A stretch of 13,576 nucleotides of DNA from Candidatus Asgardarchaeum abyssi (GTDB lineage: Archaea; Asgardarchaeota; Asgardarchaeia; Asgardarchaeales; Asgardarchaeaceae). The position numbers and the translations under genes were made by a program. The notes beneath the pieces are model-generated. The model did no database searches and was not told where the DNA came from. It saw only the letters and a list, made by a program, of their open reading frames with translations. Below are positions 614 through 13,417 of this stretch, in pieces (the stretch's first letter is position 1; each line of letters begins with the position of its first letter). The stretch is from positions 1 to 13,576 of the forward strand of contig JBECUL010000053.1 of NCBI GenBank assembly GCA_040225955.1. Reading direction: 5' to 3'.

Positions 614-2137
614 TCACATATTTCTATGAAGTTCTATCAACTGTGAACCCCAGAAAGTAATAGCATCCCTGTAAAGGCTGTAATATGGATGACTTTCAAG
701 AAGAATATGTAGTGTTTTTAACTGCCCTACTGGTTTCCCAATATTATACATATAATTATCTATTTTTTCAAAGAAGGCGTTATTAACAACCACCATTTTT
801 GGTTTCAGAAGGATCTTTGATGCTCTTACTAATTTATATACTTCATTCAAGTCTTTTAGTTTCTCATCAAAATCGTTAATAAACATCCCAATATCATTCG
901 GCTTTCTCATAAATGATACATAGATATGATATACTCCAAGACCGCCCTCTACCATGGGTATAACTAAGTACCGATTTAGTACGCAGTTGTTTCTTTTACA
1001 AGCATATACTATTGCTGCATTTATTTCATCTTCTGTAACTTTTTCAGTAGCCAAGTTTATAACTTGCTTGGCCCTGCCTTTTACTTTTATCACTGGCGGA
1101 TCTAGAGATACAAATTCTATTACATCACCTACGTTATAGCTATAAAGACCACTATATGTAGTTACATGCATAACATATGGCACACCCTTCTTAACATCAT
1201 AAAGTGTAAATCTTTCCGGACATTCTTTATTGATGTCATCAAGCTTGACAAACTCATAGAATATTGACTCAACAAACAAAAGCATAGAGTCCTTATATTC
1301 ACTATGTATCTCTGCTCCATAAAAGCCTTCACTTCCTATATAGCTACCCAGATACTGAACACTTCCAATGTTCTCTTCAAACCACTTTTTATATGGTGAA
1401 ATTGAGACACCACTCCAAAATATGACTTCTATATTCTCTCTTATTCTCTTTAATAACCCTTTTTCAGATGCCCTCTGTAATAGGCTAATTAAGAATGGTG
1501 TTACGCCTATAGCAATTGTTATCTTTTTTCTTCTTATGGCTCTAAGTGTTAATTCGTATTTGAGCTCAGTATTTTCCATGTTTATAACATCAGTTGAGGG
1601 AACAAAGAACCTTCGAATGAATTTATTCTGTGTTGTTGCAAGAACCCCACTCATATAACCGACAGGTACCCCATTTATTTCATCAAGTTTTGCTGAAGCA
1701 GTAAAAAGCAAAAATTTGCCCCTTAGAATTTTAGGGTTTTCGCCAATTAAGTAATAAAATATTTTTTTCACAGCTCGCCTATCTATAGAAAGTCTTTTTT
1801 CACTCAGAGGATAAAGTTTCGATGCGCCAGTAGTTCCAGTACTTTTTACCCACCACTTTAAAGGATAATTAAAAAGAATTCGATGGTTTCCATTTATTAT
1901 TTCTTCAATGTACGGTTTCAGTTGCCCATAACTAAGGAGGGGAACGTTTTCCTTATAGTCCTCTACATTGCATATATTTTTGAAGTTATGTTGCTTACCA
2001 AATTTTGTGTCTCTATTCTCGTTAATTATTCCTCTTAAAACATCTTCTTGAGCTTTAATAGCCTCTTCATATGTTTTTATGGTTCTGAATTTTTGTAGTA
2101 GTTTAAATACTTTAGATGTTATACTTATTATTGCCAT
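614..2137 (-). CDS. GH3 auxin-responsive promoter family protein (acyl-acid amido synthetase fold, ANL superfamily)
   Basis: 507 aa with GH3 hallmarks: QEDVLRGII..NRDTKFGKQHNF, VPLLSY, STGTTGASK (phosphate-binding loop), YIGSEGFYG, FYEFV, GLYSYNVGDVIEF, KGRAK, EKVTE. RBS GGGGGTGAGG lies upstream. Confidence 0.92.
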   Translation of the reverse strand: MAIISITSKVFKLLQKFRTIKTYEEAIKAQEDVLRGIINENRDTKFGKQHNFKNICNVEDYKENVPLLSYGQLKPYIEEIINGNHRILFNYPLKWWVKSTGTTGASKLYPLSEKRLSIDRRAVKKIFYYLIGENPKILRGKFLLFTASAKLDEINGVPVGYMSGVLATTQNKFIRRFFVPSTDVINMENTELKYELTLRAIRRKKITIAIGVTPFLISLLQRASEKGLLKRIRENIEVIFWSGVSISPYKKWFEENIGSVQYLGSYIGSEGFYGAEIHSEYKDSMLLFVESIFYEFVKLDDINKECPERFTLYDVKKGVPYVMHVTTYSGLYSYNVGDVIEFVSLDPPVIKVKGRAKQVINLATEKVTEDEINAAIVYACKRNNCVLNRYLVIPMVEGGLGVYHIYVSFMRKPNDIGMFINDFDEKLKDLNEVYKLVRASKILLKPKMVVVNNAFFEKIDNYMYNIGKPVGQLKTLHILLESHPYYSLYRDAITFWGSQLIELHRNM

Positions 2138-2190: not shown

Positions 2191-2267
2191 GTGACCATAA
2201 AAATAACCAAAAAGTAAATCAATAAAATTAGATTATTGTAGTTCTGAGAGTCAATTAAGTGATATTT

Positions 2268-3959
2268 ATGTCAACACGGCTTATGGAATTGGCTAAACTT
2301 TGCAACCAGCTGGAAAAGACAACTAAGCGAAAGATATTAATCAATTTACTAATTGATTTCTTTAAGAAATTAAGTTATGAGGATTTGAAAATAACAGTTT
2401 CGCTTCTTTCTGGAGAGTATAGACATCTATTAGAAAGCCCTTTAGAAGTCTCGTGGGGTATTTTCTTTAGAGCTATTCAAAATGTTGTAAGCTTCTCGAG
2501 AGAAGAGTTTATTGAACTATTTGATAAAAGCGGAGACATAGGAATTGTGATTTATGAATTATTTAAGCGGCATAAAGTAGCCAGGCAGATGACGCTTTTA
2601 TCTTTTACTGCAGATGTTACTATAAAGGAATTATTTGATCTTATTCGAATGCTTGCAAGATATGAAGGGACCAAGAGTCAAAGGAAAAGAGAAGAACTCA
2701 TTGCATCTTTCTTTAGCAGACTTTCACCCGATGAGGCAAAATGTGCTACAAAAATACTTTTAGGCGAGCTACGTGTGGGAGTTAGCATCGGTCTATTAGA
2801 GGAAGCAATTGCATCATTTTATGCTGTTCCAGTAGAGAAGATAAAACATGCCCACATGGTGCTTGGTTTGCTTTCTGAGGTTATCGATGTCATTGAAAAA
2901 TATGGCCCTGAATACTTAGATAAAGTTAAGCCCAAATATTTTAGACCATTACGTGTTATGTTAGCTGATACTGCTAAAACTACACACGAAATTGTCGAAC
3001 GTCATGGTGGTTTAGTGGCAACTGAATACAAGTTGGATGGTATTCGCGTACAAATTCATAAACGAGGTAATATTGTAAAAGTCTTTACCAGAAGGCTAAA
3101 AGAGATTACAGAAAATGTACCCGAGATTGTGGATTTTGCATTAAAGATTTCGCTTGATTTCATTGCAGAAGGAGAATTAATAGGAATTAGTCCTAGTGGC
3201 CAACCTCTTCCATTTCAAGATTTGATGAAAAGATTCAAACGAACACCAGAAACTATGCGTGAAGCCATGAAAATACCTATTAAACTTTACTTGTTTGATC
3301 TTATTTCTTTGGGGGAAGATACCCTCCTTGATAAGCCATATCTTATTAGGCATATCAAATTGTTAGAAACCTTTCCCAAGGATGTTATAATCCCACATAT
3401 TCTAACTAATGATCCTAGCACAATAGATGACTTTTTCAAAGAATCTATAGAAGGGGGGCATGAGGGACTTGTAGTTAAAAGGCTTGATAGTATTTATACG
3501 CCAGGGATTCGCGGAAAAAATTGGCTTAAGTATAAATATACTCACGAGACGCTTGATGTAGTAATTGTAGCAGCTGAGTATGGATATGGAAGAAGGCATA
3601 AATGGTTAAGTGATTACTATCTAGCTGTTAGAGATCCGCAGAGCAATGAACTTTTAGTTATTGGGAAAACATTTAAGGGACTTACTGATGAGGAATTTGA
3701 GGAAATAACAAAGAAATTGGAGTCTATCGCAATTAAGAAAATCGGAAGAAAAGTCATTGTTAAGCCGGAGATTGTTTTAGAGGTTGAATTTAATGAAATT
3801 CAAAAATCTCCAAAATATAAGTCTGGTTTTGCTTTAAGATTCGCAAGAGTAAAGCGAATAAGATATGATAAGGATGTAAGTGAAATTGATACTATAGACA
3901 AGGTTAGGAAGTTATATGAGCTACAATTTAGATATAAAGGGATTTTATCAAATATCTAA
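2268..3959 (+). CDS. lig: Archaeal ATP-dependent DNA ligase (probable start ATG 2268; ORF opens at GTG 2259)
   Basis: N-terminal DNA-binding domain (GDIG, LRVGV) and motifs I EYKLDGIR, III EGELI, IIIa YLFDL, IV EGLVVK, V WLKYK, VI ALRFARVKRIRYDK. Confidence 0.97.
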   Translation: MSTRLMELAKLCNQLEKTTKRKILINLLIDFFKKLSYEDLKITVSLLSGEYRHLLESPLEVSWGIFFRAIQNVVSFSREEFIELFDKSGDIGIVIYELFKRHKVARQMTLLSFTADVTIKELFDLIRMLARYEGTKSQRKREELIASFFSRLSPDEAKCATKILLGELRVGVSIGLLEEAIASFYAVPVEKIKHAHMVLGLLSEVIDVIEKYGPEYLDKVKPKYFRPLRVMLADTAKTTHEIVERHGGLVATEYKLDGIRVQIHKRGNIVKVFTRRLKEITENVPEIVDFALKISLDFIAEGELIGISPSGQPLPFQDLMKRFKRTPETMREAMKIPIKLYLFDLISLGEDTLLDKPYLIRHIKLLETFPKDVIIPHILTNDPSTIDDFFKESIEGGHEGLVVKRLDSIYTPGIRGKNWLKYKYTHETLDVVIVAAEYGYGRRHKWLSDYYLAVRDPQSNELLVIGKTFKGLTDEEFEEITKKLESIAIKKIGRKVIVKPEIVLEVEFNEIQKSPKYKSGFALRFARVKRIRYDKDVSEIDTIDKVRKLYELQFRYKGILSNI

Positions 3960-4657
3960 TCCATTTCTGGCTCTAAGAAGTGTAATAATGTTAATAATAA
4001 TGTTAGAAAATTATCTACGTTTTTTCCAGTAATAGCAATAGTTTTAAAAACAGGTACACGTTCGGTCGATAAAACGATATCTACAATATCGTCATCTTTT
4101 ATATCAAAGTTCTTACCTCTTAACTTGTTAGGATACTCTATTACACCATCCACATTTACAACTATTGACGGACGGATGCCTAATTCTCTAAGAATAGTAT
4201 TATGTGACGCTGTACCAGGTAAATCCATTTTGTTAATTACTATTATTTTAGGCAATTCAAAAAGTCTCTTTCCAATAGTTTCAATTGTCTCTAATTCCTC
4301 CCAATAGTAAGCATTCATTTTATAACTTAATCTAATATCCTCTGCCTTATCGGGTCTTTGACTGTTGCACATAAATACAATAAATTCGGGAACTATCGTC
4401 GACAGCACATTTCTTCTATTTGTTGATAACCAATCTTGCCCCCCATAAGCATAAAAAATATGTTCATATTCGTTATCTCTCATTCTAAGTGGACCTATAA
4501 AAAGTCTATCAAGAAATCGCGTTCTGCCGAATATAGGTTCTCTATCGTCAATTAACTTAGATTTACTTATAATTTCAGAGATTCTCATCAAGATTGTTGT
4601 CTTTCCAACATAGGGAGGCCCTGCAAAGAGTGTTGTTGTTACTCTTTTTAATGTCAT
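3956..4657 (-). CDS. Small Ras-superfamily GTPase, MglA-like
   Basis: G1 GPPYVGKTT, G2 GRTRFLD (MglA has DRTLFFD), G3 YAYGGQ lacking the DxxG Asp (MglA has YTVPGQ), G4 NKMD, G5 TIAITGKNV. It starts 11 nt downstream of the roadblock gene, and its stop overlaps the ligase stop by 4 nt. Confidence 0.88.
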   Translation of the reverse strand: MTLKRVTTTLFAGPPYVGKTTILMRISEIISKSKLIDDREPIFGRTRFLDRLFIGPLRMRDNEYEHIFYAYGGQDWLSTNRRNVLSTIVPEFIVFMCNSQRPDKAEDIRLSYKMNAYYWEELETIETIGKRLFELPKIIVINKMDLPGTASHNTILRELGIRPSIVVNVDGVIEYPNKLRGKNFDIKDDDIVDIVLSTERVPVFKTIAITGKNVDNFLTLLLTLLHFLEPEMD

Positions 4658-4668
4658 TGTGTCACAAC

Positions 4669-5190
4669 CTACTTTTTCTTTTTCGCTAGCCGCTCAATAA
4701 AACCTGCAATTTCCTTCCATCTCTTCCTCTCTTCTGGGGTTAACCAAGTAAGCTTTTCTGTTCTATCAAAAAATTCTGCAGCTCTTTCAGCCGTTTTCTC
4801 AAGAATATCATGAATCTGTTTTAGTATATTTTTTGCAACTACTCTTATGACAGCCATATTAGTTTCTGGAGAACAAAAAATAGCTATATACGCCCTCCCA
4901 CCTTCTTCAGAGCTAATGTATGTTTTTACGTCCTTACCCTCTATAATAATATTATCAATATAGGGAGTGCCTAATTCTTGATAAACTTTTGCACCTTCAA
5001 CGTATACACCAAGTACTGTATTGCTTAATGCCAACTCAGCCTCTTCTTTGATATTCCCAGATGAACAAATAGGCAAACCGGTCTCATCTACCACAACAAC
5101 ACCAAGAATTCCTTCCTCTTCAAAAAGCGAGTTAACTAAATCCTTTATACTTTTTGTCTGTTCAGGGGTAAGTGTACGTCCCTCAGCCAT
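4669..5190 (-). CDS. Roadblock/LC7 (MglB-like) protein with C-terminal helical extension (probable start ATG 5190)
   Basis: Roadblock pattern: helix, GILGVVVVDETGLPICS, helix, NIIIEGKDVKTYI, YIAIFCSPETNMAVIRVVAK. GGTGGT RBS precedes the ATG, and the gene is co-oriented with the GTPase. Confidence 0.88.
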   Translation of the reverse strand: MAEGRTLTPEQTKSIKDLVNSLFEEEGILGVVVVDETGLPICSSGNIKEEAELALSNTVLGVYVEGAKVYQELGTPYIDNIIIEGKDVKTYISSEEGGRAYIAIFCSPETNMAVIRVVAKNILKQIHDILEKTAERAAEFFDRTEKLTWLTPEERKRWKEIAGFIERLAKKKK

Positions 5191-5316
5191 TAAACCACCA
5201 TCTCTCCAAAGCAAATTTTATTTTTGATATAAAAATTATTGTTTTATGTAAGTCATATTCTCAATAAGTTAATAAATATTCGTAATATAATTATTTTTAG
5301 TCACTTGGTGCTAATT

Positions 5317-6906
5317 ATGATTTCAAGACTAAGAGAAATATTTGGAGACTGTTTAGAGGACATAGTTTCGGCTTTAATGATACGTTATCCAGTAGTACTA
5401 ATTGGTAATTTAACTGAAAGCACATTTATGAATCTAATAAGTATAGCATCTCCTCACAGATTCTTTTTAAACGCAACAAATATCTCTGAAGATGAGATAA
5501 GAGCTTTGTTTGATTCCGAAGCCACTGAAAAAAGTAAACGTGTTATACTTCACTTTTCACAAGTTATGCCTGACTTTATTCATAAAATCCCATTTGGTTG
5601 GGTCTGCACTATAGAGCATTTCAGTAAGGGGTATAAGCTACTGAATGCTCTGATTTACGATTTATCAAATAAAAAACTTTTAAAAACAAAGAACTTTGAG
5701 ACTGCCTTTAGAAATAGTGTCTCTCTTTACTTAAAAAAGCTTGAAATATTCGAACACATTTATGGAGCTGCTGAAACTAGAACATTTGCAAATGTCATCA
5801 TAACGTCTCTACTAAGTCAGATAGAGATCCTAATTAATCTTTTATATCCAAAATTAAAATCAGGAATCCATTTATCTGAGGATGAATATATTAACCTTCT
5901 AAATGATATATTTACGTATCCAGAATTCATACCTATTGCCTTTAAGATATACTCATCAGATTATCATATAGATCTAGGAGATATTTACGTTAGCTTCCAA
6001 GAGATTTGTAATAAAAGATTAATTGAGAGAGAGAAAATTGTTATAAAGCCTGATTTTCTTACCTTAAAAACAATTTTTGGGAGAGAGATTCTGGATTATT
6101 TATTGAGTTTTGCGCTTATCGGCATCCCTATTGTAATATTAACAGACGACTTAGATATTGTTGATAAATTAATAAACGCACTACAATATATACTTCCAAA
6201 TCGTAAAATAATTTTACAAAAAGAAACGGCAGAAATACCCCACATATCAGAACCACATCTTGCAATATATGTAGACCCTCCAGTGCTTCCTCAAAAGGAG
6301 TTTGACATGATAATCATTACAGAAAGGAGAAAGATTTTTGAGGAAATATCTGATTTTGAATTTTATTTAGCTATTGATTTATTTTCAAATAAGTATAATT
6401 GCTCTATGGATATCCCACCAGTTTTTTCAGATGCGCTGGAATTTAACATTGAAGAACTTATGGAAGAGGCTATTAGAGAAAAAGTCCGAAAATTGATGAT
6501 GCAGATAGATCTTATACTAGGAATTACAAGAGATAAAACAATTATACATGCAATGTACAGTTCTTCGATATCTCATCTCTTGATGGAGGATAAATTATTT
6601 TTAGCTGGCCTATTACGAGCTGAAAGACCAAATGATAAATTCTTTGAACAACTTTTCAGACTGTTTATATCAATAGTATGGCCTCATATACCATACAGAA
6701 TAAAAGTAAAAATGCCCTTTTCTATAAGTAGGATCAATAAATTAGTTAAAGAGGCAAAATCAAAGAGGCATGTGCTTCGTATCTTTGCTTTATCTTCAGC
6801 CATGTTAAGTGAGATTTTATATCTTGACGAAGTAATCCTATTTAGGAATCTTGTAGAAATAGAGAAGTTGCTCAGAAGGGGGATTATAGAGATTGAGCTC
6901 ATCTAA
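5317..6906 (+). CDS. Protein with two tandem DENN/folliculin-C-like cores and a possible degenerate C-terminal wHTH (probable start ATG 5317)
   Basis: Long ORF with GGTG before ATG 5317. Internal repeat: RLREIFGDCLEDIVSALMIRYPVVLIG..LISIASPHR..LIYDLSNK and TLKTIFGREILDYLLSFALIGIPIVILTDDLDIVDKLINALQYILPNR..LAIDLFSNK, matching the cDENN helix-helix-strand-helix-Pro pattern. The CDS is well supported; the domain call is by eye. Confidence 0.65.
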   Translation: MISRLREIFGDCLEDIVSALMIRYPVVLIGNLTESTFMNLISIASPHRFFLNATNISEDEIRALFDSEATEKSKRVILHFSQVMPDFIHKIPFGWVCTIEHFSKGYKLLNALIYDLSNKKLLKTKNFETAFRNSVSLYLKKLEIFEHIYGAAETRTFANVIITSLLSQIEILINLLYPKLKSGIHLSEDEYINLLNDIFTYPEFIPIAFKIYSSDYHIDLGDIYVSFQEICNKRLIEREKIVIKPDFLTLKTIFGREILDYLLSFALIGIPIVILTDDLDIVDKLINALQYILPNRKIILQKETAEIPHISEPHLAIYVDPPVLPQKEFDMIIITERRKIFEEISDFEFYLAIDLFSNKYNCSMDIPPVFSDALEFNIEELMEEAIREKVRKLMMQIDLILGITRDKTIIHAMYSSSISHLLMEDKLFLAGLLRAERPNDKFFEQLFRLFISIVWPHIPYRIKVKMPFSISRINKLVKEAKSKRHVLRIFALSSAMLSEILYLDEVILFRNLVEIEKLLRRGIIEIELI

Positions 6907-7159
6907 TAATGCTTTTTACATTTGGAAGGCTTTAATAGAGAAGGCAATAATAGAAAGCTTACCTAGCATTGAAATTTTTGGGGAACCTTTTAGCATAATC
7001 AATGAAAATACTTTAACCAAGGAGAATAAGATTATTCTCTTTAAAGGTAAAAAGTTAATACTGAGAGACTTAAATAAAAATTATGAGCTCGCTATTGATT
7101 TGAATAGGGCAACAGAAGAAGTTCTATGGAGCACCCTTCTGATTTTTATAAGAAACTGA
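6893..7159 (+). CDS. Small hypothetical protein (88 aa)
   Basis: TTG start overlaps the upstream stop by 14 nt. It fills the otherwise empty gap, has a normal composition, and overlaps the next gene convergently by 36 nt. Confidence 0.55.
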   Translation: MSSSNNAFYIWKALIEKAIIESLPSIEIFGEPFSIINENTLTKENKIILFKGKKLILRDLNKNYELAIDLNRATEEVLWSTLLIFIRN

Positions 7160-8296
7160 ATACTTCTTTGCTATAAGTACCCTAAAAATGCCGGGGATGC
7201 TATGTTCAAAAAGGTATGCGTATTCTTTAAGCCCATGTTCGTTTAGTTGTCTATTAAAATGGTTAATATATAGGTTTCCCGAAAGTTCATCCCTAAATTT
7301 AATAAAATGCGGACGTACCATCCAATTTTCTTTTAGAAACTTTGTTATAAAAATAATTACGCCATTAGTTTTTAAATGATTTTTAATAATCTGTAACGTG
7401 ATACCCGTATTGGTATATAGCTTTTTGAAGTTCTCTAATACTACTACTAAATCGTATTTTCTACTCTTGAGATTATAATCTTCCAAGAAGTCTATTTTCA
7501 TTTGTAAAAAGTCATGCAGATAACTTTTCATTATACTTTCAGATTTTTTATCATCACAAAATACATCGATTTTTTCTATATTTTGAAGCATTTTTACTAA
7601 AATAAAAACTACTTGATGATAACAACCGAGAACAAGTACACTCCTAACATTTTTCAAATTTAAAAGGGAGAGTGTCGCTTGCAGTAAAAACTGCGAGACA
7701 ATTCTATTTATAGATGCTTGCGTCCAGATGAGCCCCTTATTAAAATATATAGCTTTATTGAATATTTGTAGTATCGAGAATACAGTTGAGTATGGCACAT
7801 CAATTTTACTCTGCAGGAATTTTATTAGAGGTGTACTTTTTATGGTTATCTTATTTTTTAGTAAAAATTTGTCATCAATCCTATCAGCTAAATTAAACAT
7901 TACAAGACTTACAAAAAGGTGATATAAGTGAGATTTAGCGTTAACAAGTAATTTTTTATCTACGATTATGTCGTCTATACTTACAGGAACACCAACATAC
8001 CGATCTAAACCAAAGTTTATAATTAGCGTGGGGAACACTACATATCTCCAAAAGTCATCAAATCCATATATTATTTTTAACGCTAGCACGATATTCATGA
8101 ATCTTTTTCCAAGTAACTTAGAAACACTAAAAGGTAAGTGTTTAGCAAATAATTTTGCAAACATCAATTTTAAGATCATTATTTTTTGAAACATAGAATC
8201 ACGATTTAACTTCCTTCCAGCTGGATAAAATTTTTTCCCTCCTAGTAGGAAAAACGATCCTCGACTTTTTTCCCTCCTAGTAGGAAAAACGATCAT
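7124..8296 (-). CDS. Class I SAM-dependent methyltransferase-fold protein with N-terminal wHTH-like region and degenerate motif I (true start may be ATG 8179 or 8194)
   Basis: VRSVLVLGCYHQ (motif I-like), IDVFC, KYDLVVVLENF, LQIIKNHLKTNGVIIF. The segment VSIDDI..LYHLFVSLVMFNLADRIDDKFLLK resembles O-methyltransferase dimerisation wHTH domains. Confidence 0.7.
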   Translation of the reverse strand: MIVFPTRREKSRGSFFLLGGKKFYPAGRKLNRDSMFQKIMILKLMFAKLFAKHLPFSVSKLLGKRFMNIVLALKIIYGFDDFWRYVVFPTLIINFGLDRYVGVPVSIDDIIVDKKLLVNAKSHLYHLFVSLVMFNLADRIDDKFLLKNKITIKSTPLIKFLQSKIDVPYSTVFSILQIFNKAIYFNKGLIWTQASINRIVSQFLLQATLSLLNLKNVRSVLVLGCYHQVVFILVKMLQNIEKIDVFCDDKKSESIMKSYLHDFLQMKIDFLEDYNLKSRKYDLVVVLENFKKLYTNTGITLQIIKNHLKTNGVIIFITKFLKENWMVRPHFIKFRDELSGNLYINHFNRQLNEHGLKEYAYLFEHSIPGIFRVLIAKKYSVSYKNQKGAP

Positions 8297-8302
8297 TATT
8301 TT
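8174..8302. repeat. 12-bp direct repeat GATCATTATTTT flanking a 105-bp segment
   Basis: Copies at 8174-8185 and 8291-8302. On the minus strand each reads AAAATAATGATC and contains the TAATG stop/start overlap. Confidence 0.75.
8231..8294. repeat. Two identical 29-bp direct repeats, 6-nt spacer, each internally palindromic
   Basis: TTTTTTCCCTCCTAGTAGGAAAAACGATC at 8231-8259 and 8266-8294. The core is TCCTA-G-TAGGA with arms TTTTTCC/GGAAAAA. Confidence 0.95.
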
Positions 8303-10554
8303 AATGAAATTGCCCTCTCAAGAGCTTTACGACCCCTCTCAGTGAGCTCGAATTGTATTCGTTTTGAACTTCCAGTAAAAGTTATAATTGGTTTAACTAA
8401 TGACAACTCTTGTAATCTTTTTATAATCCTTTTTAGCGTGTCAAAAGATAAATCCTCTAGTATATTTGCAAGCGCTAGTAATGTTAGGGGCATTTCGTCA
8501 AGCCATGTCAATATTCTGATAACGGAATCTTTTAAATCCCTAAATTCAAGTGCAAGCAAATCATAATTTTCTTGAGGGAGGGCTAATTGATTTGGCTCTT
8601 TCAAAAAATCACTCTCTTCTTCAATATTCTCGTATTCAAGAATAAGCGGTATTGGCAATTGTAAGTCTTTTCTATATAATAGAACTCTATCATTACCCAT
8701 TGTTCTTAGAAAGGAAATCTGTTGAATTTTATGTCTATGCTCACTGTAAAGCCCTTCTCCTGCTTCACTTAGTCGAATATAACCAGCTATTATTTTTGCA
8801 TCATCCAATGCTTTAAGTTCGCCAACTGCGAAATTGTCACAAAGAGAGTATATATCCCTAGCTATTTTTGATGGCATAGTTGTACTGAAGTGAAACAGAA
8901 TACCGACTTTATTAAGCTCCTTAATTAAACTTGTTAAGAGCTCTGGAGCTTTGTTGCTGAGAAAATTTTCAACGGAATCCACTAAAACTATTATTTTTTC
9001 ATTCTTCCTTTTAGAAGTAAGTATTCTATAAAGTATGAAATAAAATATAAGAGAGTGTAGAAATAGTTCCCTTTTCACACCAAAGAAAATAATATTCGAC
9101 TTATAAAGAGCCTCTTCAAATTTAATAGAGTCGGATAGGTAAAAGCGTCTATTCTTATCTACGACAATTGATAATAGAAAATTTCTGAAATTTTGCAACT
9201 CTGCTTTTACCTTATAAGGTAACGGCTCAGTGAGCATACCATCAATTATTCCAATGAGTGTATCAACTGTTGGTTCTGCATCTTCAAACCCTCTCTGTAA
9301 AACTAAAAAAAGATTAGGATCCGCCGGATTTGAAATATAATTGGATAACGTTAGAGCTAAGAGTAAGAATCTAATATATCCTTGGATATTGCTTTTTTGT
9401 GATGGATTTAAAATATTAATTGAGGCATTATAACCGATTATATACCTTGGCAAGTCTTTAAAATCTCTAATTCTAAGAAGCTTACTATCAGAATCTGCAA
9501 TAATAATGTAACGAATATTATCAATTATGGCTTTCTTTAGAATTTTATAATTAATAAGTTCTACAATCTCTTTATTATCTGCGGCAATAATAGTGTTCGA
9601 TGTAAGTAAGTTGTCCCACTTGAATCCTGCTTTTTCTTTTAATTTTTCCTCATTAATTCCTTCAGGATCGTAAATAAATCCTATATCGATATCACTCTCC
9701 ACCGACTGCGGTACAATAAATTCGCTTGGCAGTACAGTTCGTATATTTTTAATGAACATGGGTGATATATCGATAAATCGTTCTACTTCAATACCCCATA
9801 AATAAAAGGATGATAAGAGAGGGGGGCTGCCATCCAAGATTAGTGATAATTCTTTTGCGCCAAGTCTTCTAATCCTAGTATGTGGAAATGCAGAGAGAAA
9901 ACTCGCCATGAGAATGGACATATTCCTTTCGATCTTATTACTGATCTTTTCGAGCCAACCAGGAATGATTCTCGATTCTACAAAGGTTCCTATGATTATA
10001 GCACTTTTCCATAATCCATAGTGTGATACTAATGCGATACCTCTTTTTTCCTTACTTAAGCCACTGCTAATAATCTTCTGAGACTTATTAATAGGATAGT
10101 TAAGAATCGTATAGAAAAATGGGATATTCTCTATCATCGCACTCCTCACAAAGTATCTTAATTTCCCTTGAATTCTTAATGGTAACTCAGATATTTCAAA
10201 AGCAGAGTAAGCTTTAGCTGTAAGCGATTTTTCATCGATTCTTATTAGAACCTTACCATCTTTTATTAATGTTGTTTCGTCCGCTTTTGCAAGCAATAAA
10301 ATCGCTCTTTTCAAAACTTTCATTATAGTGAGATATAGTGAAATGAGTAACAATGAAACAACGATAGACAGTATGATAGTATTGAGGGTTAGGATTTTAG
10401 TGAATACGATGTAAATTAACGACGTTATTGAAAATACAAGCCCAAGGAGAGGTGCTTTTAGCCTTGCTATTATGCCTTCTTTTCGCTTTAATGGCAATGA
10501 AGCAAACGATGCCTCGTCATCCCTTTCAAAATTTTTCTCAGCCATTTTTATCAT
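8296..10554 (-). CDS. Membrane-anchored HerA/FtsK/VirB4-like P-loop-fold protein with degenerate Walker motifs and C-terminal winged helix
   Basis: Two N-terminal hydrophobic helices (about aa 35-80). DIDIGFIY..NTIIAADNKE sits at the Walker A position, followed by INILNP, IIVLVDSVENF at the Walker B position, and LNKVGILFHFSTTMPSKIARDIYSLCDNFAVGEL (compare RKyGv.lilaTQ.Psdi...v.sn). The C-terminus LTLLALAN..TLKRIIKRLQELSLVK..FELTERGRKAL is a typical wHTH. Confidence 0.75.
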   Translation of the reverse strand: MIKMAEKNFERDDEASFASLPLKRKEGIIARLKAPLLGLVFSITSLIYIVFTKILTLNTIILSIVVSLLLISLYLTIMKVLKRAILLLAKADETTLIKDGKVLIRIDEKSLTAKAYSAFEISELPLRIQGKLRYFVRSAMIENIPFFYTILNYPINKSQKIISSGLSKEKRGIALVSHYGLWKSAIIIGTFVESRIIPGWLEKISNKIERNMSILMASFLSAFPHTRIRRLGAKELSLILDGSPPLLSSFYLWGIEVERFIDISPMFIKNIRTVLPSEFIVPQSVESDIDIGFIYDPEGINEEKLKEKAGFKWDNLLTSNTIIAADNKEIVELINYKILKKAIIDNIRYIIIADSDSKLLRIRDFKDLPRYIIGYNASINILNPSQKSNIQGYIRFLLLALTLSNYISNPADPNLFLVLQRGFEDAEPTVDTLIGIIDGMLTEPLPYKVKAELQNFRNFLLSIVVDKNRRFYLSDSIKFEEALYKSNIIFFGVKRELFLHSLIFYFILYRILTSKRKNEKIIVLVDSVENFLSNKAPELLTSLIKELNKVGILFHFSTTMPSKIARDIYSLCDNFAVGELKALDDAKIIAGYIRLSEAGEGLYSEHRHKIQQISFLRTMGNDRVLLYRKDLQLPIPLILEYENIEEESDFLKEPNQLALPQENYDLLALEFRDLKDSVIRILTWLDEMPLTLLALANILEDLSFDTLKRIIKRLQELSLVKPIITFTGSSKRIQFELTERGRKALERAISLK

Positions 10555-10597: not shown

Positions 10598-13417
10598 TCA
10601 TAGAGCGAGCTTACTAAGTACAGGCATTAGATTGTTAAGTTCATCTTTATTTTCTGTGATAATTTTAACAAGGACACTCTTCTGAACTGGTTTTATAGCT
10701 ATTATAGTATTGTCCTTCGATAATATTTTACCCGCAATGTTATCTCCTTCAACTTGAAAATCAAGTCTTTTAAGTTCGTTAACAATGTTTTCCTCACTTG
10801 TTTGTATAAGAAGAACGTCCATATATTTCCATCTTGACGAAAAAACATCATATGGAATAAACCTTTTGGGAATATGACCCGCTCTTAATTTTACGAAACT
10901 TCTCATAAATACAAAAACTCCTAAAGCGCTAGGTGCAATTATTCCAATTATTAGATTTTTGAAAGAAGGAATTATAGTAATGATAAAAGATTTTCTTAAA
11001 AGTAAAACTCCATTAGGTCCTATAAATTCTAGAATCAGCTCTCTTTTTCCAAAATCATAAATTGTTTCTTCAATGTAGGTGACTTGTAGCTCTATTGCAT
11101 ATGTTTTATTTTTAGATAACACTATATGAGTCCCGTTAGCTACGAATGGCCTCTTAGCTGAAAGAGTTATATTAATCTCTTTTGAAAACTTACTTCTTAG
11201 GTTTACTATTACTTTATATGACATTCCTTGTTCCATGAAAGAGGGATGTTTTACACTCAGAATTTCAATACCACTGTCAACAAAAATACTCAAACATTCG
11301 AAGAGTATGAAAATTCTTGAATTTTCTAAAACGAAGGTAATTGTCAAATTCCCGGATTTCCAGATTCTTTCTGAAGTTATATTTAGAATAGACTCACCTG
11401 GTTTTATAATAATTGATTTGTTAAACAAGTTGGTTGAATTCAAAATTCCTCTTGGAAGTATTGTTATTGTTTCATTTAAAATATTCAGAAAATGGAGTGT
11501 GACATTCAAAGAATCCCCTTGTACTATACTACTAGGAGCGTTTAACTTATAAAATACCGTCTGAGATGAATTTACAATCTTGAAAGTCTCTTTACCGTTA
11601 CATTGCACCTTTATTTTATATTCACTTGGATATTTAGGTACAAAGACTATTTCATTCCAAAGTCTATTCTCAAAGATCCCTTTAAATAAAACATCTCCTC
11701 TAAACATACTTATTATGCTAAGGTTAACTGAAGACTCAACCAGAGTCCATCTCCGAGTTTCAAAAACAGAGAAATTTAACTCGGTTTCCACACCTTGAAT
11801 AAATTTTGGATCTTCTTTAAATACCAGTGATATTTCATCTACTTCCCATTCAACAGCATTTCGAATTACTTGGCTAGAAAAATTATTGGGAATTATTATT
11901 CCAAACAGAATTATATTTGGCTGCCCCATAATGAACTTCAAAATGCTCATGTTTCTTTTTTCATTTAGTATTATATCGAGATCTCCTAAAGCAAAAGTAT
12001 ATGCATGTTCTATTGTTTCATTAATGATATTGAATATTGGAATTCTATGAAGTAACGGGTGATATATAATGTCAGGTTTCATCAATGAGGCTTTGAAACT
12101 CCACTCTAAACTGATATTTTTTCCAAGTACATCTCTGAAATATACTGCAGCACTGGCCCCTAGAAAGATTACTTTTCCATCTCCTACAGCAGTAACGATA
12201 TTATGTAAAGTTTCTTCCGATGTGACTAGGGGGTCTACTATTATTGTATGACTATTAAGGGCCGTTGTTAATTCTGTTAAATCTATAAAGTTAATGTTAG
12301 ATAACGTTCTCTCGAGTGTGTATATCCAGTCGCTTGTTATGGTATTATTTGTCGGTAGATTAAAGCTACTCATCATCAAAAGTGCTTCAAGAAGAATTGT
12401 AGCGTTTCTGATTTTTTCTAATGAAACATAATCGATTGTATCTTCGGGTGAAAATGCTTTGCTTGAGCTATAATTTTCTTCGGAAATCACAACAGCGTTG
12501 ATATTATAATTATAAAATATAAACTCACCAGCGCCCCTATAGTCAATTGCTCTACTTTCTTCGAAATAAGCAAATGAAAAGTCCAAAGCTTTTCTAAGCG
12601 CACTCTCTTTATTTTTAAGTATTCCATTTTTATCAAATATTGATATTCTGCCAATTTTATAGCCTATCTGATCTATAAAGAATACAGTTTTAACCGTGAT
12701 ATTACTTTGTTCTAAATAATCCAAGAACTTAATAATACCGAGATGATTGCAAGTCTCAGCGGATATAAAGGCTATTATAATTGGTCTTTTTATGTTTTCC
12801 ATGTTAATTTTTCTTAAGGCCATTAAAAGTGCTGTAACACCACTGGCATCGTCATCAACTCCAGGTGAGTCATCGGGATATTCCTTCTGAGCAAAATTTA
12901 ACGACAAGCTATCATAGTGTGCAAGAAAAACAGTAACGGTCTCATCAGATGTGATATTTCCTATTTTTACAATAATATTAGCAGTATAATATGTTCTTGA
13001 GTTGTATTCCACATCAAACCATTGCTCTGAATAATTAAGTTGCAAATAATCTAAAGATAACTTTAGGATGCTTCTCGTTAGGTTATTTCCCTCTTTACTA
13101 ATATGTCTGCTTGAAAATATTGTTATTTCTGATAATGTCTGAGCGATTTCACTGGTGCTTGGAGATTTTATATTTGCACGCAAGAATTCATGAGTATATG
13201 TGAAGTTCCCTATATAGTAGACATTTGTTAATGAGTTGTTTTCCGCTTGTTTTTCTTTGAAGTTTACTTTATGATTGCTTTGCTTTTGTATTTTTGTAAT
13301 TTTTATAAATGAGTTATTATTTTCATTGAGATTAGTTATATTAATTAGAATGGTAGCTGATGACAGTATTAGGATGATTGTTATAATTGTAAGTTTAATA
13401 GTTACTCTCTTTCTCAT
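10598..13417 (-). CDS. Large membrane/surface protein: M28 peptidase-fold domain (incomplete Zn site), alpha/beta domain, Ig-like repeats, C-terminal TM and cytoplasmic tail
   Basis: N-terminal basic + hydrophobic segment, then ANIIVKI, AHYDS, SPGVDDDASGVTALL, ISAET, FFIDQIG, FSPEDT. Beta-rich repeats (APSSIVQGDSLNVT, HPSFMEQGMSYKVIV) and many NxS/T sequons follow. TM LIIGIIAPSALGVFVFM precedes a tail of about 100 aa. Confidence 0.85.
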   Translation of the reverse strand: MRKRVTIKLTIITIILILSSATILINITNLNENNNSFIKITKIQKQSNHKVNFKEKQAENNSLTNVYYIGNFTYTHEFLRANIKSPSTSEIAQTLSEITIFSSRHISKEGNNLTRSILKLSLDYLQLNYSEQWFDVEYNSRTYYTANIIVKIGNITSDETVTVFLAHYDSLSLNFAQKEYPDDSPGVDDDASGVTALLMALRKINMENIKRPIIIAFISAETCNHLGIIKFLDYLEQSNITVKTVFFIDQIGYKIGRISIFDKNGILKNKESALRKALDFSFAYFEESRAIDYRGAGEFIFYNYNINAVVISEENYSSSKAFSPEDTIDYVSLEKIRNATILLEALLMMSSFNLPTNNTITSDWIYTLERTLSNINFIDLTELTTALNSHTIIVDPLVTSEETLHNIVTAVGDGKVIFLGASAAVYFRDVLGKNISLEWSFKASLMKPDIIYHPLLHRIPIFNIINETIEHAYTFALGDLDIILNEKRNMSILKFIMGQPNIILFGIIIPNNFSSQVIRNAVEWEVDEISLVFKEDPKFIQGVETELNFSVFETRRWTLVESSVNLSIISMFRGDVLFKGIFENRLWNEIVFVPKYPSEYKIKVQCNGKETFKIVNSSQTVFYKLNAPSSIVQGDSLNVTLHFLNILNETITILPRGILNSTNLFNKSIIIKPGESILNITSERIWKSGNLTITFVLENSRIFILFECLSIFVDSGIEILSVKHPSFMEQGMSYKVIVNLRSKFSKEINITLSAKRPFVANGTHIVLSKNKTYAIELQVTYIEETIYDFGKRELILEFIGPNGVLLLRKSFIITIIPSFKNLIIGIIAPSALGVFVFMRSFVKLRAGHIPKRFIPYDVFSSRWKYMDVLLIQTSEENIVNELKRLDFQVEGDNIAGKILSKDNTIIAIKPVQKSVLVKIITENKDELNNLMPVLSKLAL

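Follow-up and report, generated by a model that had tools for sequence, protein, structure and literature searches.

Introduction

An operon of a roadblock gene, a small GTPase gene and a DENN gene has been predicted in most Asgard archaea by Liu et al. (bioRxiv 10.1101/2020.10.19.343400). Their text likens the operon to folliculin (FLCN), Rag and Ragulator, notes that its GTPase is not a Rag, and proposes exchange-factor activity for the DENN protein. Here, we analyze a cassette of four genes that includes the same three protein families and lies on a 13,576-nt stretch of DNA (the window) from Candidatus Asgardarchaeum abyssi. The window is an entire contig (JBECUL010000053.1, or C53) of a 2.6-Mb genome that is 93% complete, with 7.8% contamination. 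In it, a single roadblock gene and an MglA-type GTPase gene are oriented divergently from a gene coding for a protein with two DENN repeats and from a small gene that overlaps the latter. We consider it probable (ca. 0.6) that this cassette is a lineage-specific paralogue of the Asgard module that acts as a self-contained switch.

Two better-studied systems serve as points of reference. In Myxococcus xanthus, MglB binds MglA with a 2:1 stoichiometry and positions Arg53; the C-terminal helix of MglB holds it on MglA-GDP and favours exchange, and through this helix MglB alone has dual activity, that of a GTPase-activating protein (GAP) and that of a guanine nucleotide exchange factor (GEF; PMC13408092). 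Two kinds of interface, longin-longin and cDENN-cDENN, hold the eukaryotic double-DENN complexes together, and the catalytic arginine of FLCN and SMCR8 resides in the longin domain (PMC8336837). It is usually hard to infer from gene order which regulators belong to which Asgard GTPases (PMC10933270); the locus described here names four candidate partners. The original prediction, made from the sequence of the window, put forward the roadblock-GTPase-DENN linkage as a new observation, which does not hold, since the text of Liu et al. already predicts the operon. What is new, measured against that text, is the arrangement of a double DENN protein with a single roadblock protein, the reverse of the common form. 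The double-DENN, tailed-roadblock, divergent and orphan-bearing architecture alongside a common operon was not found described in the literature, including the text of Liu et al.

Relation of the cassette to the Asgard roadblock-DENN-GTPase module

The cassette fits the Asgard module in that three of its genes share one neighbourhood and that the first DENN repeat (repeat 1) is homologous to the DENN proteins of Asgard operons (E 7e-7 in a single-sequence search; E 6e-6 for the copy from the same genome in a profile search). Repeat 2 matches the operon DENN family weakly. In examined loci from ten families, the common form of the module is one co-directional operon with genes for a double roadblock protein (~310-345 aa), a single DENN protein (~285-310 aa), and a GTPase (~190 aa), in this order; it is very likely the operon of Liu et al., judging by their text, with which the window shares the three protein families and a longin-less DENN protein. 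The common form is also present in the genome that the window comes from, on contig C10 (~22130-24514), where it codes for a 312-aa double roadblock protein, a 294-aa DENN protein, and a 192-aa MglA-type GTPase. A broader DENN profile had matches in 162 of the 251 genomes of the phylum.

Unlike the common form, with which it coexists in one genome, the window cassette has a single roadblock protein with a basic tail, a double DENN protein with an additional C-terminal domain, a GTPase with two insertions, a divergent layout, and an orphan fourth gene. When the 250 other genomes of the phylum were searched with profiles of repeat 2, the GTPase subfamily, and the orphan 88-aa protein, none yielded a close counterpart (for the 88-aa protein, no counterpart), and the best other GTPase match there was a common-form GTPase (E 8e-13). 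No relative was found in pattern scans of the genome contigs. Judged by sequence, the cassette and the C10 operon are paralogues, and among the genomes searched the cassette is confined to a narrow lineage. Because of this confinement and the long branches, we regard the window version as derived rather than ancestral; the cassette itself does not show what the eukaryotic system looked like ancestrally.

Two families (f18 and f11/g19; loci L026-L036, L102, and L103) have the genes in another order, roadblock-GTPase-DENN, and code for a single roadblock protein. This second form shares with the window a single roadblock gene directly upstream of the GTPase gene, and differs from it in having a single DENN protein and co-directional genes. 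In profile comparisons, repeat 1 scores highest against DENN proteins of this form (36 and 22 bits, versus 13 for the common form), and repeat 1 groups with them in a tree, without strong support, while the GTPase and roadblock proteins of the window score better against the common form. Both placements of repeat 1 survive approximately unbiased (AU) tests, and the GTPase subfamily branches off by a long stem in an open fork. Repeats 1 and 2 are apart in the free tree, again without strong support, and a single clade is not rejected by the AU test (p 0.15); sequence comparison is compatible with either a tandem duplication or a fusion of two paralogues as the origin of the two repeats. In six f18 genomes, the roadblock-GTPase-DENN locus holds the only DENN match found. 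In the g19 loci of this form, the GTPase has a histidine at the switch I arginine position.

Two predicted DENN cores in the 529-aa protein

The 529-aa open reading frame (ORF; 5317-6906, plus strand) starts with an ATG at position 5317, and all of its homologues begin at the same methionine, by which an upstream TTG at 5239 was ruled out as the start. Searches of Pfam, NCBIfam, and PDB sequences with the protein did not detect the DENN repeats. Its language-model neighbours in the ESM Atlas were DENN families and Asgard clusters of ~300 aa. An AlphaFold model (pLDDT 83, pTM 0.70) contains two units of alpha/beta plus helical structure, in which helices and strands run in the same order, and a small C-terminal domain.

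In a structure search that covered 48,161 PDB chains, repeat 2 (residues 241-446) matched DENN proteins with Z scores of 9.4-11.2 and root-mean-square deviations (rmsd) of 3.2-3.7 Å over 174-187 residues. The best match was to DENND10 (Z 11.2, 3.2 Å, 177 residues), followed by DENND1A (Z 10.7), FLCN (Z 10.3), and SMCR8 (Z 9.4), with all P-loop folds ranking lower. Repeat 1, folded alone (residues 1-235), gave Z scores of 8.8-10.9 and rmsd values of 4.7-5.5 Å over 180-184 residues; here, folliculin was the best match (Z 10.9, 4.7 Å, 180 residues), and DENND10 and SMCR8 both scored 9.5. The top five structural ranks for each repeat were DENN proteins, and the two repeats matched each other in a profile comparison (probability 88%, E 3e-6). 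Modelled in this way, both halves of the protein are confirmed as c/dDENN cores, and the tandem DENN assignment of the original prediction is borne out.

A reading of the 529-aa protein as a degenerate tandem AAA+/P-loop ATPase draws on the Foldseek search with the whole model, whose top matches were tandem AAA+ proteins, and on P-loop folds reaching Z scores of 8-8.7 over ~115-160 residues. The Foldseek matches, however, had a TM score of 0.15 and an rmsd of ~25 Å, and for each repeat the DENN proteins ranked higher in Z, with more residues aligned. There is no Walker A motif (GxxxxGK[ST]) in the protein or its homologues, leaving it without a Walker A/B signature, and the language-model neighbours are DENN families. 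On the modelled structure, we consider this reading largely refuted and its truth very improbable. As a separate observation, the cDENN lobes (window 5317-5700 and 6040-6390) resemble AAA+/RecA P-loop cores (Z 7-8.7) without Walker motifs, a resemblance in line with a P-loop-like topology of cDENN.

Repeat 1 keeps R23, P25, P46-H47-R48, and G94-W95, which are invariant or near-invariant columns of the wider Asgard DENN family, while the corresponding R-x-P, PHR, and GW motifs are largely lost from repeat 2. Neither repeat is preceded by a longin (uDENN) domain: with cDENN folds starting from residue 1 and from about residue 241, there is no room for one. Thus, with FLCN-FNIP, C9orf72-SMCR8, and DENND1/DENND10 the protein shares the c/dDENN fold, present twice; it differs from them in lacking longin/uDENN and in carrying both units in one chain. 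No similarity of the repeats to any of these proteins was detected at the sequence level. In the model, a hydrophobic stretch at residues 258-276 corresponds to the helix and strand with which repeat 2 begins, both of them buried, and a membrane span at this position was rejected on these grounds. A winged-helix reading of the C-terminal ~70 residues (460-529), based on secondary structure, was not confirmed.

The GTPase and roadblock proteins resemble MglA and MglB

The GTPase contains a P-loop (GPPYVGKT, residues 13-20), R45/T46 in switch I, a GQ pair in switch II (G73/Q74), NKMD (142-145), and TIA (206-208). The P-loop, NKxD, and G5 motifs are intact, and the DxxG aspartate of switch II is absent, as it is in MglA. 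In the PDB, a family profile built from nine homologues matched MglA chains and no others (E 7e-4), with R45, T46, and Q74 aligned to Arg53, Thr54, and Gln82 of MglA. Two insertions, of ~8 aa near residues 107-115 and of ~35 aa near residues 166-200, are specific to the subfamily. The chain ends ~25 residues past the G5 motif without a fused roadblock domain, and no match to roadblock or Gtr1/RagA was found in it; because of this short C-terminus, the protein is not a Rag. Taken together with the adjacent upstream roadblock gene, these motifs identify the GTPase, by sequence, as one of the MglA type.

The roadblock protein matches PF03259 above the cut-off (E 1.8e-7), and its family profile matches Asgard roadblock structures as well as MglB and LAMTOR3 chains. 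The MglB/LAMTOR-like fold spans residues ~13-133; past residue ~135, the chain continues as a conserved extension, at the end of which lies an amphipathic, basic helix with a net charge of +3 to +7. Both family assignments made originally, MglA-like GTPase and roadblock, are upheld by these matches, and the retained equivalents of Arg53, Thr54, and Gln82 lend support to the idea of an MglA/MglB-like pair of a GTPase and its putative GAP.

The window and the MglA/MglB systems of M. xanthus and Thermus thermophilus have the same mglB-mglA gene order, and the intrinsic Arg, Thr, and Gln of MglA are kept. A C-terminal roadblock helix is found both here and in M. xanthus MglB. In contrast to these similarities, the GTPase is distant from MglA in sequence, has two insertions, and is linked to a DENN gene. 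We know of no described MglAB system with a linked DENN protein. With Rag and Ragulator, the window shares a roadblock fold beside a small GTPase; Rags, however, carry a fused roadblock domain that the window GTPase lacks, and Ragulator is a multi-subunit scaffold, whereas the window has one roadblock gene. We conclude that the GTPase falls outside the Rags, and the DENN protein outside the folliculins. The originally proposed bridge from MglAB to the Rag-Ragulator-FLCN design therefore amounts to no more than an analogy, given that there is neither a roadblock domain fused to the GTPase nor a longin domain in the DENN protein, and that the cassette belongs to a narrow, derived lineage.

Layout of the cassette and its conservation

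The layout of the cassette is summarized in Table 1. On the minus strand, the order is roadblock-GTPase, with the roadblock stop codon 11 bp ahead of the GTPase start; on the plus strand, the 88-aa ORF overlaps the DENN gene by 14 bp, and an identical overlap is seen in a relative (locus L013). The four genes agree with their neighbours in GC content and in third-position GC, and so give no sign of recent import.

Table 1. Genes, domains, and intergenic DNA of the cassette (window coordinates).
Feature	Position	Strand	Remarks
MglA-type small GTPase	3956..4657	-	233 aa; profile match to MglA, GTP-binding motifs
Single roadblock/LC7 protein	4669..5190	-	173 aa; PF03259; ATG at 5190
Divergent intergenic region, AT-rich, 126 bp	5191..5316		GGTG-type ribosome-binding sites ahead of both starts
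DENN repeat 1 (aa 1-235), cDENN+dDENN fold	5317..6021	+	structure match; R-x-P, PHR, GW motifs
DENN repeat 2 (aa 239-459), cDENN+dDENN fold	6031..6693	+	structure match; family motifs of repeat 1 mostly gone
C-terminal domain, ~70 aa, of 529-aa protein	6694..6906	+	strand, four helices, strand
88-aa orphan protein	6893..7159	+	start TTG 6893; no family or fold assigned

The divergent four-gene layout recurs in five lineages, two of which are named Asgardarchaeia: the window itself; GCA_052584985; GCA_052584825 with matching metagenome contigs; SRR32452089/90; and one ENA contig, whose end cuts the GTPase gene. The reference genomes returned by the searches included none from the genus or family of the host, and named relatives of the cassette proteins came from two "Candidatus Asgardarchaeia" assemblies and one assembly labelled Odinarchaeota. 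Between lineages, identity is 55-77% for the GTPase, mostly 47-77% for the roadblock protein, and mostly 23-38% for the DENN protein; the double-DENN frame is intact in all five (523-533 aa), down to 23% identity. The 88-aa protein has five homologues, each encoded directly 3' of a double-DENN gene, a position that its gene has in all five lineages. It received no Pfam, PDB, or Atlas assignment and had no profile match to roadblock or DENN. In SRR32452089/90, the exact block of four genes is inverted between the methyltransferase and GH3 genes, a single event; the methyltransferase there and its counterpart in the nearest lineage share 44% identity.

The intergenic region is AT-rich and measures 97-160 bp in relatives. 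When relatives were compared, no conserved motif was found in it other than the roadblock ribosome-binding site. A σ70 promoter scan, with a model that is ill-suited to archaea, remained at chance level. Promoters in the 126-bp region are presumed. The architecture foreseen in the original prediction, with four ORFs that include a tightly spaced roadblock/GTPase pair, a divergent arrangement across about 126 bp, and a small ORF coupled to the DENN gene, is thus present in all these respects, and the linkage is conserved in relatives; for the single divergent promoter region that it also proposed, the comparison yielded no conserved element other than the roadblock ribosome-binding site.

A proposed switch and its alternatives

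By extrapolation from MglA/MglB, a homodimer of the roadblock protein would bind the GTPase 2:1 and would stimulate hydrolysis by bringing into position Arg45 and Gln74, both of which belong to the GTPase itself; on this analogy, the roadblock protein is quite likely to be the GAP of the window GTPase. Its basic C-terminal helix would either hold the GTPase, as the tail of Myxococcus MglB does, or anchor the complex on a membrane. That the DENN protein acts in the same pathway as the pair appears reasonably likely. Having no longin domain, it has no FLCN-type arginine finger, and it cannot be a GAP of the FLCN/SMCR8 kind because the catalytic arginine of those proteins sits in that domain. The DENN protein is instead most likely a non-GAP partner, a scaffold or an exchange factor, although a true exchange factor is doubtful. 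It could form a single-chain pseudo-heterodimer, with repeat 1 as the conserved binding surface or working unit and repeat 2 as a degenerate structural partner, and the 88-aa protein may be its accessory subunit. The trio of families is linked in three gene orders across Asgard archaea, and so has stayed together through several rearrangements. A complex prediction with the GTPase, two roadblock chains, and the DENN protein scored 0.01, against a mark of 0.32, and was used neither for nor against the switch.

Several observations weigh against a self-contained switch. The literature searched contained no Asgard DENN protein with a tested function. The DENN gene lies on the strand opposite the GTPase gene, which excludes their co-transcription, so that co-regulation is presumed, and the DENN protein (mostly 23-38% identical between lineages) diverges much faster than the other two. 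The genome has ten roadblock matches and several other small GTPases; the true partners could thus be others. The flanking genes for an M28 peptidase, a 752-aa protein, a methyltransferase, a GH3 enzyme, a Band 7 protein, and fumarase are also syntenic in most relatives, making synteny within the lineage weak evidence by itself, and the inversion of the four genes happened only once. The opposite strands, the fast divergence, and the high background synteny would all suit an autonomous MglAB-type switch, in which the roadblock protein would provide both GAP activity and tail-mediated exchange, and the DENN and orphan genes would be neighbours by descent, serving another GTPase or having lost a regulatory role. 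The GAP/GEF activity of Myxococcus MglB alone, exerted through a C-terminal helix, points in the same direction, as the window roadblock protein has such a tail. Yet the double-DENN frame has stayed intact in five lineages, the trio is linked in three orders, and the sole inversion kept the four genes together. We therefore consider it quite unlikely that the pair works without its neighbours.

Alternatively, the roadblock homodimer could replace the missing longin pair in trans and dock on the two c/dDENN repeats, so as to build an assembly with the shape of FLCN-FNIP or C9orf72-SMCR8 around one MglA-type GTPase client. The longin-longin and cDENN-cDENN pairing of the eukaryotic complexes (PMC8336837) and the presence of FLCN and SMCR8 among the best structural matches are consistent with such a complex, and the reciprocal fusions (a fused DENN pair here, a fused roadblock pair in the common operon) suggest a 2:2 stoichiometry. 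On the other hand, roadblock and longin are related yet distinct folds, the arginine finger of FLCN/SMCR8 comes from longin while the window GTPase has its own arginine, and trees tie neither repeat firmly to longin-DENN proteins. We regard an assembly of this kind as unlikely. Were it true, the cassette would code for a prokaryotic split counterpart of FLCN-FNIP and C9orf72-SMCR8, and the reciprocal fusions would reveal an architecture of two roadblock units, two DENN units, and one GTPase for the whole Asgard family.

The lineage-specific paralogue acting as a switch is thus the reading that we prefer. The window and the C10 operon constitute a natural experiment within one genome, with a doubled DENN protein and single roadblock protein in one and a doubled roadblock protein and single DENN protein in the other. 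The paired cassettes make it possible to test stoichiometry, as well as the cross-specificity of the two paralogous switches, and bear on the route by which DENN cores without a longin domain became regulators of small GTPases.

Flanking genes and other Asgard DENN loci

A gene for a GH3-family acyl-adenylate-forming enzyme with all three Pfam domains (window 614-2137, minus strand) is kept beside the cassette in each of the five lineages or in close relatives of these. Between it and the GTPase gene, the window has an ATP-dependent DNA ligase gene (2259-3959, plus strand), whose stop codon overlaps that of the GTPase gene; the ligase gene is found between GTPase and GH3 in two lineages and is not at that position elsewhere. 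On the other side lies a methyltransferase-like ORF (7124-8296, minus strand) with faint Pfam matches only, which is possibly degenerate; the gene at the same position in L107 and L009 codes for a clear SAM methyltransferase. In the 752-aa protein (8296-10554, minus strand), two hydrophobic segments lie at the N-terminus and a weak winged-helix match at the C-terminus; the protein has no assigned family and is conserved at 30-45% in relatives. It is followed by a gene for a 939-aa M28-family peptidase (10598-13417, minus strand), which has one hydrophobic segment at its N-terminus and another at the end of a long C-terminal region.

Three loci elsewhere deserve mention. At L015:859-3440, a GTPase copy that is 99% identical to that of L019 from about codon 24, and lacks both the P-loop and a roadblock gene, lies beside a Mutator-type transposase gene; judged from the sequence, it may be either a transposon-linked rearrangement or a misassembly. 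In genus g19 (L046:665-2451 and L047:662-2448), a further longin-less DENN protein, of 320 aa and with a winged-helix-like tail, is encoded directly behind a ParA/MinD-type ATPase gene, which takes the place of a GTPase gene. In family f21 (L041:1-2178), a gene for a probable longin-DENN protein of 356 aa, the C-terminal half of which matches DENN, lies upstream of genes for a roadblock protein and a Rab-like GTPase, and this trio is closer in make-up to folliculin than is the trio of the window.

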